Of a stretch of DNA of 64,000 nt, positions 7,318 to 36,904 are shown piece by piece. The notes beneath the pieces were generated by a model, which did not search any database, was not told the origin of the DNA, and worked only from the letters and a program-made list of their open reading frames with translations. Position 1 is the first letter of the stretch; every line of letters begins with the position of its first letter. Origin of the DNA: Candidatus Spongiisociaceae bacterium (GTDB taxonomy: Bacteria; Actinomycetota; Acidimicrobiia; Spongiisociales; Spongiisociaceae); NCBI GenBank assembly GCA_965202665.1, contig OZ241841.1:1504001-1568000 (forward strand), read 5' to 3'. A program made the translations under genes and the position numbers.

Positions 7318-8556
7318 ATGCCCTTGGTGGTGCAGAAATACGGCGGCACGTCGGTGGCCGACCCGGAGCGGATACGCAATGTGGCCCGCCGGGTGGCCTC
7401 GGCCCGGCGAGCCGGAAACGAGGTGCTGGTGGTGGTGTCGGCCATGGGCTCCGCCACTGACGACTTGCTGGCCTTGGCCAACCGGGTCAGCTCCCGTCCG
7501 CCGCCCCGGGAGTTGGATATGCTGCTCACCGCCGGGGAGCGCATCTCCATGGCTTTGCTGGCCATAGCCTTGCACGACCAGGGGGTTTCGGCGGTGAGCC
7601 TGACCGGGTCGCAGGCGGGCATTCTCACCGACGCCGTGCACGGTTCGGCCAAAATAACCGGCATTCGGGGGTCCCGGGTGCGGGAGGGGCTGAGCGAAGG
7701 GAATGTGGTGATCGTGGCCGGATTTCAGGGAGTGGACCCCAATTCCCGGGAGGTGACCACCCTGGGGCGGGGCGGCTCCGACGCCACCGCGGTGGCCCTG
7801 GCGGCCGCGCACCGGGCCGAGGTTTGCGAGATATACACTGATGTGGACGGGGTTTACACCGCCGATCCCCGGGCGGCGCCCGAGGCCCGCAAACTGGACG
7901 AGGTTTCGTTCGAGGAGATGCTGGAGTTGGCCGCCTCCGGGGCGGGGGTGTTGATGGCCCGGTCGGTGGAAGTTGGACGGCGGTTCAACTTGCCCATCCA
8001 TGTGCGCTCCTCGTTCACGGAGGAGCCGGGCACTTGGGTCAAGGAGAAGACGATGGAACAAGCGATCATCAGCGGCATAGCCCACGACACATCCCAGGCG
8101 AAGATCATGGTGCGGGGGGTTCCGGACAGTCCGGGGGTGGCGGCCGCCCTGTTCGAAGGGATGGCGGAGGCCAACGTCAACGTGGACATGATCGTGCAAA
8201 ACGTGGGGCGGGACGGGGCGGCCGACATAAGTTTCACGGTTCCCGAAGCCGACGCCGGGGCGGCCCGGCAAGTGGCCGAACCGCTCGCCGAACGGCTGGG
8301 GGCGGCCGGGGTGGCGGTCAACGAGGCCATCGCCAAAGTGTCGCTGGTGGGGGCGGGGATGAAGACCAGCCCGGGGGTGGCGGCCCGCATGTTCCGCGCC
8401 CTGTCCGACTCCGGGATCAACATCGAAATGATTTCCACTTCCACTATCCGCATTTCGTGCGTGGTGTCGCGGGACGACGCCGAGGCGGCGGTGCGGGCCT
8501 TGCACGGCGAGTTCGAACCGCCGCTCATCACCGAGGAGACGGGCGCCGATGGGTAG
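7318..8556 (+). CDS. ask: Aspartate kinase
   Basis: [17 protein letters not shown] and tandem ACT domains. Confidence 0.96.
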
Positions 8557-9562
8557 CAGGCTGGCGGTGGCGGGGGCCACCGGGGCGGTGGGACGCACCA
8601 TGTTGTCCGTTTTGGAGGAGCGGGACTTTCCGGTCTCGGAGTTGCGGTTGCTGGCCTCGGCCCGCTCGGCCGGTTCCAAAATTTCCACCCGGTGGGGGGA
8701 GGCGGAAGTGGAGGATCTGGCTTTGGCCGACCCGTCCGGAGTGGACATCGCCCTGTTTTCGGCGGGAGGGGACCGCAGCCGGGCCCACGCCCCCCGGTTC
8801 GCCGAGGCGGGGGCGGCGGTGGTGGACAACTCTTCCGCTTTTCGCCGTCGGCCGGATGTGCCGCTGGTGGTGGCCGGGGTGAACGACCACGCCCTAGCGG
8901 GCCATGCGGGGCTGATCGCCAATCCCAACTGCACCACCATGGGCCTGCTGATGGCGGCCGCCCCCTTGCATCGGCGGGCGGGTTTGGCGCGGATGGCGGT
9001 CGCCTCCTACCAGTCGGTTTCCGGTTCGGGGATGGCCGGGATGGAAACCCTGCTGGCGCAGACCGGGGCCTTTTTGGAGGAACGGGACTCTTTGACCGCC
9101 GGGGGTTGGACGGAGCCGGAGACCGGCCCCTATCAGAGGCCCATCGGGTTCAACGTGGTGCCGTTGGCCGGTTCCATCACCGAACAGGGATATACCGATG
9201 AGGAGTGGAAACTGGTGCATGAGACTCGCAAGATTCTGGAGCGGGACGACATCGCCATTGAAGCCACCTGCGTGCGGACGCCGGTGCTGGTCGGGCACGG
9301 GACGTCGGCGGTGATGTGGTTCGACCGCCCGATGTCCCCGGAGGAGGCCCGGGCGGCTCTGGCGGAAGCCCCGGGAGTGGAAGTGTGGTCCGACGACCGG
9401 GTGCCCACCCCGTTGGATTCGGCGGGGGCGGACAATGTGCTGGCGGGCCGCATCCGGGCCACGGTGGGGGAGCCGGGGGGGATCAGCCTGTGGGCGGTGG
9501 CGGACAACCTGCGCAAAGGGGCGGCCCTCAACGCGGTGCAGATCGCGGAGATGCTGCTATGA
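8549..9562 (+). CDS. asd: Aspartate-semialdehyde dehydrogenase
   Basis: GATGAVG, ANPNCTT and [16 protein letters not shown]. Confidence 0.96.
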
Positions 9563-32170: not shown

Positions 32171-33138
32171 GCGGGCCCTTGCTGTCCATTTCCGGCTTGG
32201 AAGTCGCCATCGACAACCGGGCCTCCCCGCCGGTCATCCCCCTGCAAGGGGTGGATCTGGAGATATTTCCGGGGGAGACGGTGGGGCTGGTGGGGGAGAG
32301 CGGGTCGGGCAAAAGCATGACTTTGCGTTCCATGTTGCGCATTCTTCCGCCCGGCGGGGCGGTGACCGGAGGGGACATCCGTTGGCGGGGCCGTTCCGTG
32401 TTGGACATGGGAGCGGAAGAGTTGGAGGCCTTTCGGGGGGCGGAGATGGCGATGATCTACCAGAATCCGGCGGCGGCCCTGGACCCGGTGCTCACCGTCC
32501 GCCGCCAAATAACCGACGCCTACCGCGCCAACCGGGACGAGCCGGACGGCGACCCGCGCCGTTTTGCGGATTCCGTCCTGCGGGAACTGGAGTTCGGCAA
32601 CCCGCGCGATATTCTCCACCGTTACCCGCACCAGTTGAGCGGGGGCATGGCGCAAAGGGTCAACATCGCCCTCGCTTTGGCCTGCGGCCCTTCCCTGTTG
32701 CTGGCCGACGAGCCGACCACCGGGTTGGACATGACCACCCAGTTGCGGGTGCTGGACTTGTTGGAGGAGCAGGTGCGGGTCCGCAACGCCGCTTTGCTGT
32801 TCATCTCCCACGACCTGCGGGCGGTGGCCCGGGTGGCGCGGCGCATCGGGGTGATGTACGCCGGGCGCATCGTGGAATTCGGAGCCCGGGAGGAGTTGCT
32901 GTCGGCCCCCGCCCACCCTTACACGCAGGCCCTCATCGAATGCATGGAGTTGCGCAGCGGGGAGCCGCCCCGTTCCATTCCCGGAGCGGTGCCTTCCATG
33001 ACCGACCGGCATTTGCTGTGCGCCTTCCGGGAACGTTGCCGGAGCCGGATGCCGGCGTGCGACCAGCAACCGGCCCCGGCCCGGTCGCTTAGCGGGGGGC
33101 GGCGGATGTTGTGCCATCTGGGAGCGGATGATGGGTGA
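32167..33138 (+). CDS. ABC transporter ATP-binding protein (DppD-like)
   Basis: GESGSGKS, LSGGMAQR, ADEPTT and HPYT. Confidence 0.93.
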   Translation: MSGPLLSISGLEVAIDNRASPPVIPLQGVDLEIFPGETVGLVGESGSGKSMTLRSMLRILPPGGAVTGGDIRWRGRSVLDMGAEELEAFRGAEMAMIYQNPAAALDPVLTVRRQITDAYRANRDEPDGDPRRFADSVLRELEFGNPRDILHRYPHQLSGGMAQRVNIALALACGPSLLLADEPTTGLDMTTQLRVLDLLEEQVRVRNAALLFISHDLRAVARVARRIGVMYAGRIVEFGAREELLSAPAHPYTQALIECMELRSGEPPRSIPGAVPSMTDRHLLCAFRERCRSRMPACDQQPAPARSLSGGRRMLCHLGADDG

Positions 33139-34099
33139 GGGGCCGATACTGGAGGTGCGGGGCCTGTCCAAAACCTACCGGGTGCGGCGTTCGGTGGGCC
33201 GGGCGGAGTCGGTGCGGGCGGTGGAAGACGTTTCTTTTGCGGTGGACCGGGCCCGGATGGTGGGGATCGTGGGGGAAAGCGGCTCCGGTAAAACCACCGT
33301 GGCCCGTTGCCTGCTCGGTTTGACCGAACCCACCGGGGGGGAAATTTTGCTCAACGGGCAGCCGCTGACGGGACTTTCCATCCGGCGCATGCGGCCCCAC
33401 CGCCGCCATCTGCAGATGGTCTTCCAAATGCCCCATTCCTCGTTCGACCCCACCCACGCCGTTGGCAGCGCGGTGCGCCAGCCGTTGCGCCGCCTGCGCC
33501 CCGACCTGTCCCGGGCGGAGCAGGAGGAGCGGTTGCGCTACGTGCTGGGGGCGGTCGGTTTGGCCGAGGAGCTGTGGGGCCGGAAACCGGCCGCGTTGAG
33601 CGGGGGGCAGTTGCAACGGGCGGCCATCGCCCGCGCCTTGGCCCCCGACCCGGATCTGGTGGTGTTGGACGAACCGACTTCCTCGTTGGACCTGAGCGTG
33701 CGGGGCGAGATTTTGACCCTGTTGCAGGATTTGCGGCAGCGGCTGTTGGCGGCTTTCGTGTTCATCTCGCATGATTTGGAGGTGGTCCGGGCCTGCTCCG
33801 ATGACCTGATCGTTATGTATCTGGGCCAGATCGTGGAACAGGGCCCGGCTGACGAAGTGTTCGACGAGCCCCGTCACCCGTACACGCAGGCTCTGGTGGC
33901 GGCCAGCCGGTTCGCAACGGACGGGCCCGCGCTGGCCCCCAAAGGCGAGCACGACCCTTCCTCGGGTTGCCGCCTGTTCCCCCGCTGCCCTTTGGCCGAG
34001 CCCGACTGCGTCGCCGACCAGTCTTTGCTCCCCATAAGCGACCACCGCCAAGTCCGCTGCTGGAAAGCCCCCGCCCCCCAGTCGGTCACCGGACGCTGA
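33131..34099 (+). CDS. ABC transporter ATP-binding protein (DppF-like)
   Basis: GESGSGKT, LSGGQLQR, LDEPTS and HPYT. Confidence 0.93.
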   Translation: MGEGPILEVRGLSKTYRVRRSVGRAESVRAVEDVSFAVDRARMVGIVGESGSGKTTVARCLLGLTEPTGGEILLNGQPLTGLSIRRMRPHRRHLQMVFQMPHSSFDPTHAVGSAVRQPLRRLRPDLSRAEQEERLRYVLGAVGLAEELWGRKPAALSGGQLQRAAIARALAPDPDLVVLDEPTSSLDLSVRGEILTLLQDLRQRLLAAFVFISHDLEVVRACSDDLIVMYLGQIVEQGPADEVFDEPRHPYTQALVAASRFATDGPALAPKGEHDPSSGCRLFPRCPLAEPDCVADQSLLPISDHRQVRCWKAPAPQSVTGR

Positions 34100-34766
34100 G
34101 CATCCGCCCCAAGGTTTCCCGATCCAGGTCGATGATGCCATCCACCAGCTCCGACAACTCACGAGCTACGCTGCGCCGGTTAGGGGTGGCGGCCACCACA
34201 TGGGCGCCTAAATCTTGGGCGGTGCGCACCGCCTCCGCCAAGTCCCGGTCGCCCGAAACTAAAACTGCGGTATCGAACACTCCCTGTCCTGCTAACCGCA
34301 CCAGATCCAAGGCGATCAGCGTATCCACCCCCTTCTGCCTCCGCTCAGGCCGAAACTCCCAATGCCGTCGGAACTCGCTGGTTAGATGATCCGGCCCAAT
34401 CCCCAGTTCCTTCGCCGTTTTTCGGAGTGCTTTGAGCAATGGCTGATCAAAAGCCTGCCTGTTCTCAGAGATGTGGCCTAGTCTCAGTCGGATACCCGGG
34501 ATTTGTCCCACCTGAGCTAAAAACCCGCGTTGGTTTTTAGCCAACTTGTGCTCTATGTGGAACGTGGCATCGTACCAATAGGCGCGGACGAAGACGCCGC
34601 TGACCGGGTTGTCGCAGTCAGCTAAATTCCGACACCAATCGGCTATCGCCTCAGCGTCAAGACGAGTCTGGGAGATCCTTTTGTTCAGGGTCCCCGCTCC
34701 CGAGGCTCTCAAGAACCCCACATCAATGAGGACCGCATAGCCGGAAAAGTTCATTTTTTCCGCCAC
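34086..34766 (-). CDS. NYN domain (LabA/DUF88, PIN-like) ribonuclease
   Basis: Acidic catalytic motifs IDVGF, YWYD, QKGVD and VSGDRD are intact; lower GC; start at GTG 34766 or ATG 34754. Confidence 0.9.
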   Translation of the reverse strand: MAEKMNFSGYAVLIDVGFLRASGAGTLNKRISQTRLDAEAIADWCRNLADCDNPVSGVFVRAYWYDATFHIEHKLAKNQRGFLAQVGQIPGIRLRLGHISENRQAFDQPLLKALRKTAKELGIGPDHLTSEFRRHWEFRPERRQKGVDTLIALDLVRLAGQGVFDTAVLVSGDRDLAEAVRTAQDLGAHVVAATPNRRSVARELSELVDGIIDLDRETLGRMLSVR

Positions 34767-34771
34767 TCCTT

Positions 34772-34803
34772 AAAAAAGGGGGACCCCTTCGTGAAGGGGT
34801 CCC
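34772..34803 (-). terminator. Intrinsic terminator immediately upstream of the NYN gene
   Basis: Minus strand GGGACCCCTT-CACG-AAGGGGTCCC-CC-TTTTTT, then AAGGAG RBS. Confidence 0.7.
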
Positions 34804-34965
34804 GGTTCACTTTTACGGCGGGGCCCGAAGGGAACCCGCCATTCCAAACGGGGAACCCTTTGAAAAGGGTTCCCCGTTTGTCTTTACAACGGGGGGGCTT
34901 TCCGCGGAAGCCCCCCCCAAAATGCACCCCCCAGGGGTGCGTACTAGCGCCGCTCAGGACGCCAA
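34772..34965 (-). ncRNA. Candidate multi-hairpin ncRNA/leader (copy 1), putative RNA antitoxin
   Basis: Six consecutive hairpins between a consensus promoter and a terminator; partly duplicated at 35392-35497. Confidence 0.6.
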
Positions 34966-34970
34966 GAGGT

Positions 34971-35000
34971 ATTATAAGCATCCCCTCCGCATCTTGTCAA
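34971..35000 (-). promoter_or_regulatory. Sigma70-type promoter TTGACA-N18-TATAAT
   Basis: Perfect -35 (35000-34995) and -10 (34976-34971) hexamers on the minus strand. Confidence 0.8.
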
Positions 35001-35137
35001 ATGAGGATTGCCCCGGGCGGGATGAATGTTCCTAGCCGGGACCGATCGCGTTGCCGGGCCGGCTTTGTTCCTCGACGGACGCCCACTTGCCCCGTAGCGG
35101 ATACCAGACGGGTGGGTATCCAGGTAGGATGCTTTTG

Positions 35138-35350
35138 ATGATGGGTGATGCTGCAACTGCGGCTGATCGGTACGCCCCGAGCGATTGGGTGGACGATCCG
35201 GTCTCCGATGCCTACTTGGCGGAAGTCGCCGAGGCTTCCGAACGCGGCGAGTTCGCGGCCGAGATAGCCGACGCCGTCGAGCGACTGGAGGCCGCGTTGC
35301 CTGATGGCCGGCGGATCGTGGGCCCGCCTTGGCGCATAGTCGGGTCATAG
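35138..35350 (+). CDS. Small acidic hypothetical protein
   Basis: About 70 aa; TAGGAT -10-like box just upstream, so possibly leaderless. Confidence 0.5.
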   Translation: MMGDAATAADRYAPSDWVDDPVSDAYLAEVAEASERGEFAAEIADAVERLEAALPDGRRIVGPPWRIVGS

Positions 35351-35391
35351 GCTAAGCCGGGATAGGGTCCCCGCGAGCCCGCGGATATGCT

Positions 35392-35497
35392 GATTAAAGA
35401 GAAGGGACCCCTGGGTAAAGGGGTCCCTCTTACTTTACAACGGGGGGCCTTTTCCGCGGAAGGCCCCCCCAAAATGCACCCCCCAGGGGTGCGTTCA
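35392..35497 (-). ncRNA. Candidate stand-alone small RNA (copy 2 of the NYN-associated RNA)
   Basis: 35433-35494 is nearly identical to 34882-34942 and ends in a GGGACCCCT hairpin plus a U-rich tail. Confidence 0.55.
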
Positions 35498-35503
35498 AGC
35501 CCC

Positions 35504-35531
35504 ATTATGCATCCCTTTCGCATTTTGTCAA
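35504..35531 (-). promoter_or_regulatory. Sigma70-type promoter TTGACA-N16-CATAAT
   Basis: Homologous to the promoter at 34971-35000, including a similar spacer. Confidence 0.65.
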
Positions 35532-35749
35532 ACGTAGATTTACGCCCTTGCTCCTCCGTTCCGTTGTTTCCGCCGCGACGTTCCGGTTGGCGGTTGGCCG
35601 GCGAGAATGGGGGGTGGGGTTTTGAATTGGGCGGGGGCGGGTTAGGATGGGGGCATGCCGTGCGCGCCTAATGCCCGATGTCGAATGTCACCTGCCGGGG
35701 GTGGGTGAGTTGGACTATGGCGGGGGAATGATGGGCGCGGGAAAGGCAA

Positions 35750-36904
35750 ATGGGCGAAACCGTCGGGTCGGTCACGACCCAGTTTTACACTTTCGGGAGC
35801 GAAGAGGAACCGTTCGTATTTGAAAACGGCGGGTCGTTGCCCGAGGTCACTTTGGCCTACGAGGTTTACGGGGAGCTCAACTCCAAGCGGGACAACGCCA
35901 TCCTGCTTTTCCACGCCCTGACCGGCAGCCACCACGCCGCCGGCTACAACCCGTCCGTGCCGGGGGCGGGCGACCGTTGGACCGACGAGTTGCACACCGG
36001 CTGGTGGGACGAATTCATCGGCCCCGCCCGTTCGCTTAACACCGACAAGTTTGCGGTCATCTGCGTCAACTGGGTGGGGCACTGCTACGGTTCCACCGGC
36101 CCCGCCTCCCCCAACCCGGCCACCGGCCAACCGTACGGGTCCGCTTTCCCCCAAGTTTCGGTGGGCGACATCGTCCGCTCCCAGTTCCGCTTGCTGGACC
36201 ATCTGGGCGTGCAACGGCTGCATGCGGTGGTGGGGGCCAGCGTGGGGGGGATGATGTGCCTGGACGCGGCCGTCCGTTTCCCGGACCGGGTGCGTTTCAT
36301 CACTCCCATCGCGGCCGGACTGCGGGCCACCGACCTGCAGATCATCCACAACTTTGAGCAGATCAACGCCATTCGCAACGACCCGCACTGGAACGGCGGC
36401 GACTACTACCGGGGATCCCCGCCCGACGCCGGGTTGGCCCTGGCCCGGATGATCGGGCACAAAACTTTCGTGTCTTTGGATCAGATGCAGGCCCGGGCGC
36501 GGGCGGAAGTGGATGCGGACGAGGAACGGGTGCGCCTTCCCCTGGAAAGCTACATGTGGCACCAGGGGCAGAAGTTCGTGCTCCGTTTCGACGCCAACGC
36601 CTACCTGCGGGCCATGCTGGCTTGGCAGGACTTCGACCTGTACGCCGAGGCGGAACGCCGGGGAATGACCGTGCCGGAAATGCTGTCCGGCGGGGCCCAC
36701 CAGTATCTGGTGTTTTCCATCGACTCCGATGTCTGCTTCTATCACGAGGAGCAGGGGGAGATGGTGGAGGCCCTGAAGGCGGCGGCCCTTCCCCTCAACT
36801 GGATCACCGTCCACTCCGAAAACGGCCATGACGCGTTTCTGCTGGAACCGCACCTGTTCGAGCCGCATCTGCGCTACCACTTCGAGTCGGAGGGACTCTG
36901 CTGA
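35750..36904 (+). CDS. metX: Homoserine O-acetyltransferase
   Basis: LAYEVYG, HALTGSHH, GASVGGM, RFDANAY and GHDAFL. Confidence 0.93.
   Translation: MGETVGSVTTQFYTFGSEEEPFVFENGGSLPEVTLAYEVYGELNSKRDNAILLFHALTGSHHAAGYNPSVPGAGDRWTDELHTGWWDEFIGPARSLNTDKFAVICVNWVGHCYGSTGPASPNPATGQPYGSAFPQVSVGDIVRSQFRLLDHLGVQRLHAVVGASVGGMMCLDAAVRFPDRVRFITPIAAGLRATDLQIIHNFEQINAIRNDPHWNGGDYYRGSPPDAGLALARMIGHKTFVSLDQMQARARAEVDADEERVRLPLESYMWHQGQKFVLRFDANAYLRAMLAWQDFDLYAEAERRGMTVPEMLSGGAHQYLVFSIDSDVCFYHEEQGEMVEALKAAALPLNWITVHSENGHDAFLLEPHLFEPHLRYHFESEGLC

Follow-up and report, generated by a model that had tools for sequence, protein, structure and literature searches.

The window analyzed in this study is a stretch of 64,000 nucleotides (nt) from the 2.77-Mb genome (labelled G000) of an Acidimicrobiia bacterium belonging to the family Candidatus Spongiisociaceae. 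On its minus strand lies a gene encoding an NYN-domain ribonuclease (34086..34754), which is preceded by a promoter and by an RNA of consecutive hairpins with a predicted terminator at its end; a preliminary description of the sequence had proposed this module as a candidate RNA-antitoxin system. The promoter next to the gene (34971..35000) comprises TTGACA at 35000-34995 and TATAAT at 34976-34971, separated by an 18-nt spacer. All 12 positions match the consensus, and the 2.2 kb scanned contained two promoter-like sites, compared with 0.5 expected from shuffled sequences. The RNA behind this promoter, which we refer to as unit B, would extend over approximately 190 nt (34772..34964, minus strand), from the inferred transcription start to a tract of six U residues, the ends being placed by the promoter and the terminator. 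Over 34250-35150, the GC content is 0.55-0.60, which is lower than the 0.64-0.70 of the flanks. The promoter and the lower GC content had both been reported in the preliminary description, and our analysis confirmed them.

Folding revealed six hairpins in unit B, all of them at the positions first described: a weak first hairpin at 34945-34964, H1 at 34924-34940, H2 at 34891-34918, H3 at 34845-34880, H4 at 34817-34840, and H5 at 34780-34803, with free energies of -8.1, -12.2, -21.2, -28.1, -14.8, and -18.7 kcal/mol, respectively. Two details of the original account required correction, as the first hairpin barely differed from shuffled sequences (z = -1.4; 21 of 200 shuffles as stable) and the loop of H4 in the minimum-energy fold was CUUC, although the letters CUUCGG exist. 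The 216-nt RNA stretch at the NYN gene as a whole had a folding energy of -121 kcal/mol (z = -5.4), and none of the 200 shuffles was equally stable. H5 is terminator-like (34772..34803), with 10 base pairs, seven of them G-C, followed by the U6 tract at 34777-34772. It abuts the ribosome-binding site AAGGAG (34766..34771, minus strand), so the order of U tract and ribosome-binding site is as previously noted. By eye, unit B is made up of two diverged units. A 76-amino-acid reading frame inside the RNA (34751-34981) was considered and rejected as not credible because its start falls within the -10 box.

The open reading frame finder placed the start of the NYN gene at GTG 34766. This codon overlaps the ribosome-binding site, and the ortholog from the same genus begins at the equivalent methionine; the ATG at 34754, 11 nt behind the ribosome-binding site, is therefore the likely start codon, giving a protein of 222 amino acids. 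The protein matched the Pfam family NYN (PF01936) with 43.2 bits against a cut-off of 24.2 (E = 7e-11). Among the acidic residues compared over 50 sequences, D148 and D175 were invariant and D15, D66, and D173 were nearly so, and the window protein retained all of them; the earlier claim of an intact gene with catalytic aspartate motifs is thus well founded. The AlphaFold model (pLDDT, the predicted local distance difference test score, 94.2) was most similar in the PDB to VPA0982 (2QIP, E = 1.4e-7) and to the NYN domains of MARF1 (5YAA, 6FDL); alignment and predicted structure therefore agree on an NYN/PIN-like fold with an acidic active site. A helical insertion of approximately 40 residues distinguishes the window protein from a distant group of homologs, NYN clade 2, in which it is absent. 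In PADLOC, the protein weakly matched the NYN defence candidate HEC-09. At its 3' end, the NYN gene converges with the gene for an ATP-binding cassette (ABC) transporter ATPase (33128-34099, plus strand); the two overlap by 14 nt (34086-34099), with no terminator between them.

A second promoter and RNA copy, overlooked in the preliminary description, was found on the minus strand at 35531-35393, approximately 530 nt upstream of unit B. The promoter of this distal copy, unit A, consists of TTGACA, a 16-nt spacer, and CATAAT (35504..35531), and the RNA of approximately 105 nt (35393..35497) has no gene behind it. Its hairpins lie at 35476-35492, 35442-35470, and 35402-35429. Units A and B share the first two hairpins and are 95% identical over 62 nt, after which unit A continues with the same GTTGTAAAG linker as unit B, a GGGACCCC hairpin, and a U-rich tail. 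In the G-rich stem, a G:C pair of unit B is replaced by C:G in unit A, a compensatory change that keeps the pair. Between the two units, a small acidic open reading frame of 70 amino acids runs on the opposite strand (35138-35350, plus strand). A homolog with 70% identity occurs in an unrelated place in the same-genus genome G001, inside an open frame of 106 amino acids, and the 70-amino-acid frame matched no Pfam or NCBIfam family.

We then determined how widely the RNA occurs. Across the 2.77-Mb genome, searches with blastn and with a covariance model (R1) built from the units of the window and of G001 returned units A and B and no further copy. The preliminary description had named genome-wide scattering, in the manner of repetitive extragenic palindromic (REP) sequences or miniature inverted-repeat transposable elements (MITEs), as a finding that would refute it; this was checked and did not hold. 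A blastn search of the window RNA against 40 relatives yielded nothing outside G000. Searching the whole window against Rfam 15 at the gathering score returned two tRNAs only; within 34000-36000, nothing exceeded 23.7 bits and the matches were at chance level, including one to RsmW that scored 21.7 bits where the gathering score is 52. The loci of 20 relatives yielded one tRNA and no other Rfam family.

An NYN ortholog was present in 21 of the 24 other genomes of the family. In G001, the ortholog is preceded by three tandem promoter and RNA units, and a degenerate RNA copy precedes a second NYN paralog. The gene neighborhood in G001 contains an IrrE/XRE gene, a methylase fragment, and SLH proteins, whereas that of the window contains an ABC operon and metX. 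The RNA precedes the NYN gene in both settings, which indicates that RNA and gene move together. Other genera contain additional NYN paralogs, and model R1 further matched their leaders in G015 and G041 with default filters and in G020 and G008 with filters off. A match in G018 (L030) had no NYN gene nearby. When R1 was applied to 80 NYN homolog loci, none of the 18 matches lay beyond the NYN start, all being located at it or upstream, and 16 were on the strand of the gene. Through R1, the window RNA is linked to canonical leaders found at the expected position in other genera and phyla. Two of the paralogs are themselves broken, L028 (G015) by in-frame stops or a frameshift and L035 (G008) by an inserted stretch and a non-canonical start; their leaders still scored 54.7 and 34.1 bits, respectively, with the second model (R2) described below.

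The 80 homolog loci were taken from public genomes, and their taxa were assigned by record titles. They represent Actinomycetota (Acidimicrobiia, Solirubrobacterales, Egibacteraceae, Streptosporangiales, and Pseudonocardiaceae), Chloroflexota (Dehalococcoidia), Spirochaetota, and Acidobacteriota (Vicinamibacterales). Most of the homolog leaders consist of a promoter followed by two to five units of approximately 25 nt. In each unit, a hairpin whose apex is conserved as CC-GUU-GG is joined to a YUUGA linker, of the (A/U/C)UUGA type. The array closes with a GC-rich terminator, in which the final hairpin, GGGCCCC-GUU-GGGGCCC, continues into a U tract; its distance from the start codon is approximately 20-45 nt in most loci. 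TTGACA-type -35 boxes precede the arrays of many relatives. Of the 471 hairpins within 250 nt upstream, 53 had a GUU loop, whereas the number for the downstream control was no higher than 22 of 2925. Tandem Repeats Finder detected repeats of 23-27 nt in 2.0-4.7 copies in 19 of the 80 loci. One array belongs to a gene of the distant NYN clade (L038), in which a promoter is followed by 7.7 copies of a 54-nt repeat with 98-100% identity, a hairpin with U5, a ribosome-binding site, and the gene. In clade 2, whose protein identity is 27-36% depending on the comparison, the leaders are related and likewise show the CCGUUG apex together with a CUUGA linker; the Streptomyces-like homologs within this clade had no arrays.

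We aligned 32 two-hairpin leader ends over 13 base pairs, and this alignment served as the basis of covariance model R2. The results revealed that 91.3% of the cells were paired and that 10 of the 13 pairs carried compensatory changes, values reached by none of 500 shuffles; slid controls had a paired share of 70% or less. Because the rows had been chosen with a hairpin finder, the paired share is inflated, but the compensatory changes are not created by that choice. The preliminary description had proposed comparing the leaders of NYN homologs for a conserved RNA, and a related motif is indeed present there, covaries, and has no Rfam match. The GUU-apex array is apparently an undescribed RNA motif, of which the window RNA is a diverged member. 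Mimicry of the tRNA-Asn anticodon loop by the GUU apex was considered and dropped: tRNAs carry a universal U33, and the apex has C at that position.

In whole genomes, the strong matches of model R2 were all at NYN genes. Over 362 kb of homolog loci, all 58 matches at E <= 0.01 lay on the strand of the gene just upstream of NYN; they fell in 54 of the 80 loci, including 22 loci outside the training set. In five complete genomes (19.4 Mb), nine of nine matches with E < 1e-3 were at NYN genes, one of them a clade-2 gene on which the model had not been trained, and two weaker matches that were checked both lay inside coding regions. Among 29 genomes of the family, the four matches with E < 1e-6 were all leaders of NYN paralogs. 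A further 17 weak matches (E 0.0014-0.083) included one in the G001 array, and none of the 12 examined, which did not include L149, L150, L151, and L156, was near an NYN gene. In 151 genomes of the Dehalococcoidia class, both matches with E < 1e-10 were at NYN genes, and seven of the nine matches with E <= 1e-3 had no NYN gene in the locus, one of the matches (E = 1.6e-6) lying inside a coding region. The weak matches away from NYN genes indicate that the rough E-values of R2 are trustworthy only well below approximately 1e-6. Taken together, the strict coupling of the array to this NYN subfamily is strongly supported.

A maximum-likelihood tree was built from 82 proteins, L094 and L114 being omitted as partial, and clade 2 served as its root. 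The outgroup and nearly all lineages carried the array; it is ancestral on the NYN tree and has been lost three times. The window protein, nested among array-bearing lineages, grouped with the two G001 proteins (support 97), and the sister of this group comprised 20 Spongiisociaceae orthologs, all of them array-less (support 99). Only four positions separated the array-bearing proteins from the array-less clade, which are too few to read. In the array-less orthologs of genus g7 (L009, L011-L016, and L020), the first beta-strand reads FVNAGF, compared with F(I/V)D(A/V)GF in all others; the replacement of the first active-site Asp by Asn in this genus may reflect inactivation of the nuclease after loss of the RNA.

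NYN proteins with 45-53% identity to that of the window occurred in Dehalococcoidia, Spirochaetia, and Vicinamibacterales genomes, and proteins from different phyla were intermingled in the tree, a pattern suggestive of horizontal transfer. No NYN relatives were found in viral contigs, phage records contained only the 26%-identical NYN genes of Escherichia coli prophages, and plasmids contained two distant NYN homologs. One plasmid gene, at 2681-3618 of L165 from the Kitasatospora purpeofusca plasmid NZ_CP108563.1, is 36% identical and has no hairpin array. Its start overlaps (ATGA) the stop of an open reading frame of 100 amino acids with no assigned family, in a two-gene layout resembling that of type II systems, and dnaB and dciA adjoin.

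To describe the genes around the arrays, we scanned nine 16-kb neighborhoods, covering the 74 of 118 open reading frames of at least 110 amino acids that were nearest to NYN. The neighbors were a giant Mrr/ResIII protein and a Panacea-domain antitoxin in L188, a type ISP restriction enzyme with an IS1595 transposase beside it in L189, type I-E CRISPR-Cas genes in L191, an AAA_21 ATPase in L192, a Sir2-family gene in L195, and housekeeping genes in L193, L194, and L196. In the remaining locus (L190, from G047), the module of NYN gene and array (8129-8806) is flanked by purL on one side and by an EamA transporter gene on the other, the latter directly preceded by a purQ-like gene, and DDE transposases occur a few kb away; judged from gene order, the module looks like an insertion into a housekeeping cluster. 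Defence or toxin-antitoxin genes thus occurred near NYN in four of the nine loci and DDE transposases in a fifth; we regard these uncontrolled counts as suggestive only.

A second small RNA-like element was observed outside the window and away from any NYN gene, on the minus strand of G000:C1 at approximately 1997300-1997480. A TATAAT-type promoter of its own precedes it; the RNA begins with a conserved AGCGCUACG, contains a hairpin that covaries, and closes with the terminator CCCGGCCC-UGUU-GGGGCCGGG, which is invariant. The element is conserved in two genera (also L153 in G001 and L154 in G020), and Rfam contained no match at the gathering score.

Our best reading of the NYN module, to which we give roughly an even chance, is that the RNA binds and restrains the NYN nuclease in a manner resembling type III toxin-antitoxin systems. 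In such a mechanism, the consensus promoter would drive a hairpin-rich RNA that ends at the terminator just before the NYN gene. Most transcripts would probably stop there, so that RNA units would outnumber nuclease molecules, and the nuclease would be made from read-through transcripts. The conserved apex and linker may be recognized by the nuclease, each unit representing a putative binding or cleavage site, and the RNA units would hold the nuclease inactive, as RNA antitoxins do in type III systems. Were the RNA to disappear, as might happen once transcription ceases, the nuclease would presumably be released and could cleave RNA of the cell or of a phage. The lineage of the window shows drifted loops and has gained extra promoter and RNA copies. 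Speaking for this reading are the order of the parts, the confinement of the RNA to the NYN locus, its movement with the gene, the positions of the R1 and R2 matches, the covariation and repeats, the ancestral place of the array on the tree, the stand-alone copies with their compensatory swap, the defence genes near some loci, and the agreement of the relatives with published type III locus criteria.

Several observations weigh against this reading, in part for the window itself. The two units discernible by eye in its RNA lay below detection by Tandem Repeats Finder, which found no real tandem repeat in 34755-35540 (parameters 2,3,5; minimum score 30). R2 did not match the RNA of the window at E <= 0.01. 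With filters off over 4 kb, the top three matches fell in units A and B on the correct strand, but scored only 14.7, 11.0, and 7.9 bits; the hairpin loops have drifted to UGG, CCGCGG, and others instead of GUU, and extra hairpins follow the GUAAAG linkers. The 20 close orthologs of the same family retain conserved synteny and have no array, so cells can tolerate the nuclease when this RNA is missing in cis; for the lineage of the window, the case for a strict toxin is weakened accordingly. Three of the nine neighborhoods are plainly housekeeping, as is that of the window (ABC transporter and metX). Known type III antitoxins fold into pseudoknots, whereas the prediction for the units described here is a plain hairpin in each case, its apex conserved in the motif. 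The inflated paired share of the leader alignment also belongs here, as does the report that HEC-09, the one NYN defence candidate tested, gave no protection against the phages tried (10.1101/2024.01.29.577857).

The strongest alternative, which we consider less likely, is an autoregulatory 5' leader. The NYN ribonuclease would then sense its own level by way of the hairpins, which would serve it as operators or as cleavage sites, and would destabilize or terminate its own mRNA; the RNA would have no role in trans, and the nuclease would not be a toxin. Such a leader would fit an array that is always in cis and on the strand of the gene, at the short distance from the start codon noted above for most loci, and the syntenic array-less clade itself suggests a non-toxic cellular role. 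The arrays nevertheless have features that such a leader would not lead one to expect. The terminator is strong (seven to eight G-C pairs and U6-9), with no conserved alternative pairing visible; the number of units ranges from two to approximately eight, with recent perfect amplification in one locus; and copies of promoter, RNA, and terminator without a gene exist in G000 and G001. The distribution across phyla is also patchy, and some loci lie among defence genes. On the strength of the stand-alone copies, the amplification of units, the lack of visible antiterminator pairing, and the patchy cross-phylum spread, we favour an inhibitor acting in trans over a pure cis leader.

It is also conceivable, though distinctly improbable, that the NYN nuclease cuts the array into hairpin units that remain bound and serve as a cofactor, localizer, or specificity element of an active ribonucleoprotein. 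The coupling, the covariation, and the conserved loop and linker indicate an interaction but not its sign, and the coupling is ancestral, having been kept although the proteins of the two clades are now only 27-36% identical. However, the array has no variable guide-like segment, since only the stems vary and they covary, and three lineages retained the protein after losing the RNA. That the hairpins are merely stacked terminators or a local palindromic repeat lying beside NYN by chance is scarcely credible: several of those in the window are perfect palindromes, terminator-like on both strands, and Rfam offered no more than weak matches to hairpin-rich small RNAs, but the genome holds just the two copies at the NYN locus, the RNA accompanies the gene in the different neighborhood of G001, strong genome-wide matches to the related motif occur only at NYN genes, and the sequence conservation of the motif is strand-specific.

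Extending the reading of the RNA as an inhibitor of the nuclease, we tentatively propose, with somewhat less than even confidence in the combined picture, that these loci form a fourth type III family, in which an NYN toxin is neutralized by a GUU-loop hairpin array. The family would be ancient and horizontally spread over at least four phyla, many of the genomes being those of sponge symbionts; it would often stand beside restriction, CRISPR, or other defence genes and act through abortive infection. The lineage of the window would be in the course of being tamed, its RNA drifting and that of the sister clade gone entirely.

If the proposal is true, an unrelated nuclease combined with a different RNA architecture would mean that this kind of nuclease control evolved more than once. 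It would also provide the first concrete partner for the large and mostly uncharacterized bacterial NYN family, with the CC-GUU-GG apex and the YUUGA linker as the candidate recognition element, and would add a class of structured RNA that has clear covariation and a clean, easily searched genomic signature. Even as a mere autoregulatory leader, the array would be an unusual, repeat-based one distributed across four phyla.

Full-text literature searches retrieved no paper in which an NYN nuclease is connected with an RNA antitoxin or with an RNA motif upstream of its gene. CsrB and RsmZ are RNAs with many hairpins bearing the same short loop motif, a strong promoter, and a terminator, and they titrate an RNA-binding protein. 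The array described here likewise combines a strong promoter, repeated hairpins with the same loop, and a terminator. However, CsrB and RsmZ are encoded away from the gene of their protein partner, bind the small non-enzymatic CsrA or RsmA, and carry GGA loops. The ribonuclease genes rnc, rne, and pnp have established structured autoregulatory leaders, a precedent for the cis explanation weighed above, and they resemble the present loci in that a structured 5' leader precedes a ribonuclease gene in cis. They differ in having one or two hairpins instead of repeat arrays; a terminator ahead of the ribosome-binding site is lacking, as are stand-alone copies, and no leader family in Rfam matched the window or the loci of its relatives.

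On the protein side, VPA0982 (2QIP), the NYN domains of MARF1 (5YAA, 6FDL), and HEC-09 share the fold and the acidic active-site residues with the window protein. HEC-09 is described as an NYN protein embedded in defence systems; it differs in that the passages describing it mention no partner RNA (10.1101/2024.01.29.577857).

The closest likeness is to the type III toxin-antitoxin systems, of which three families were recognized as of October 2026 (ToxIN, CptIN, and TenpIN). The account of type III loci in Blower et al. 2012 gives a terminator, tandem repeats, and a promoter as their criteria, and the antitoxin repeats of TenpI are described as non-identical. With these systems, the NYN loci share the order of constitutive-looking promoter, RNA repeat array, intrinsic terminator, short gap, and endoribonuclease gene, together with a variable number of repeats, which may be non-identical as in tenpI, and a patchy, mobile distribution. 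The type III-like order claimed for the window in the preliminary description is complete in the relatives, including the locus with 7.7 repeats of 54 nt, whereas the window RNA has drifted and lacks clean repeats. At the window, the perfect consensus promoter (35000-34971) and the predicted terminator (the 10-bp hairpin with U6 at 34772-34803) are present, and tandem repeats are absent from its own RNA; in the homologous loci, tandem repeats are found. The relatives thus conform to the published description of a type III locus and the window does so in part, its own units being diverged. The toxins of the known families are not of the NYN family, as the preliminary description had stated. The nuclease found here has an NYN (PIN-like) fold, by its Pfam assignment and its fold matches to 2QIP and MARF1, rather than a ToxN/Kid-like one, and is none of ToxN, CptN, or TenpN; for this reason, we do not file the locus as a member of ToxIN, CptIN, or TenpIN, and compare it with them as a type III-like arrangement built around a different nuclease.

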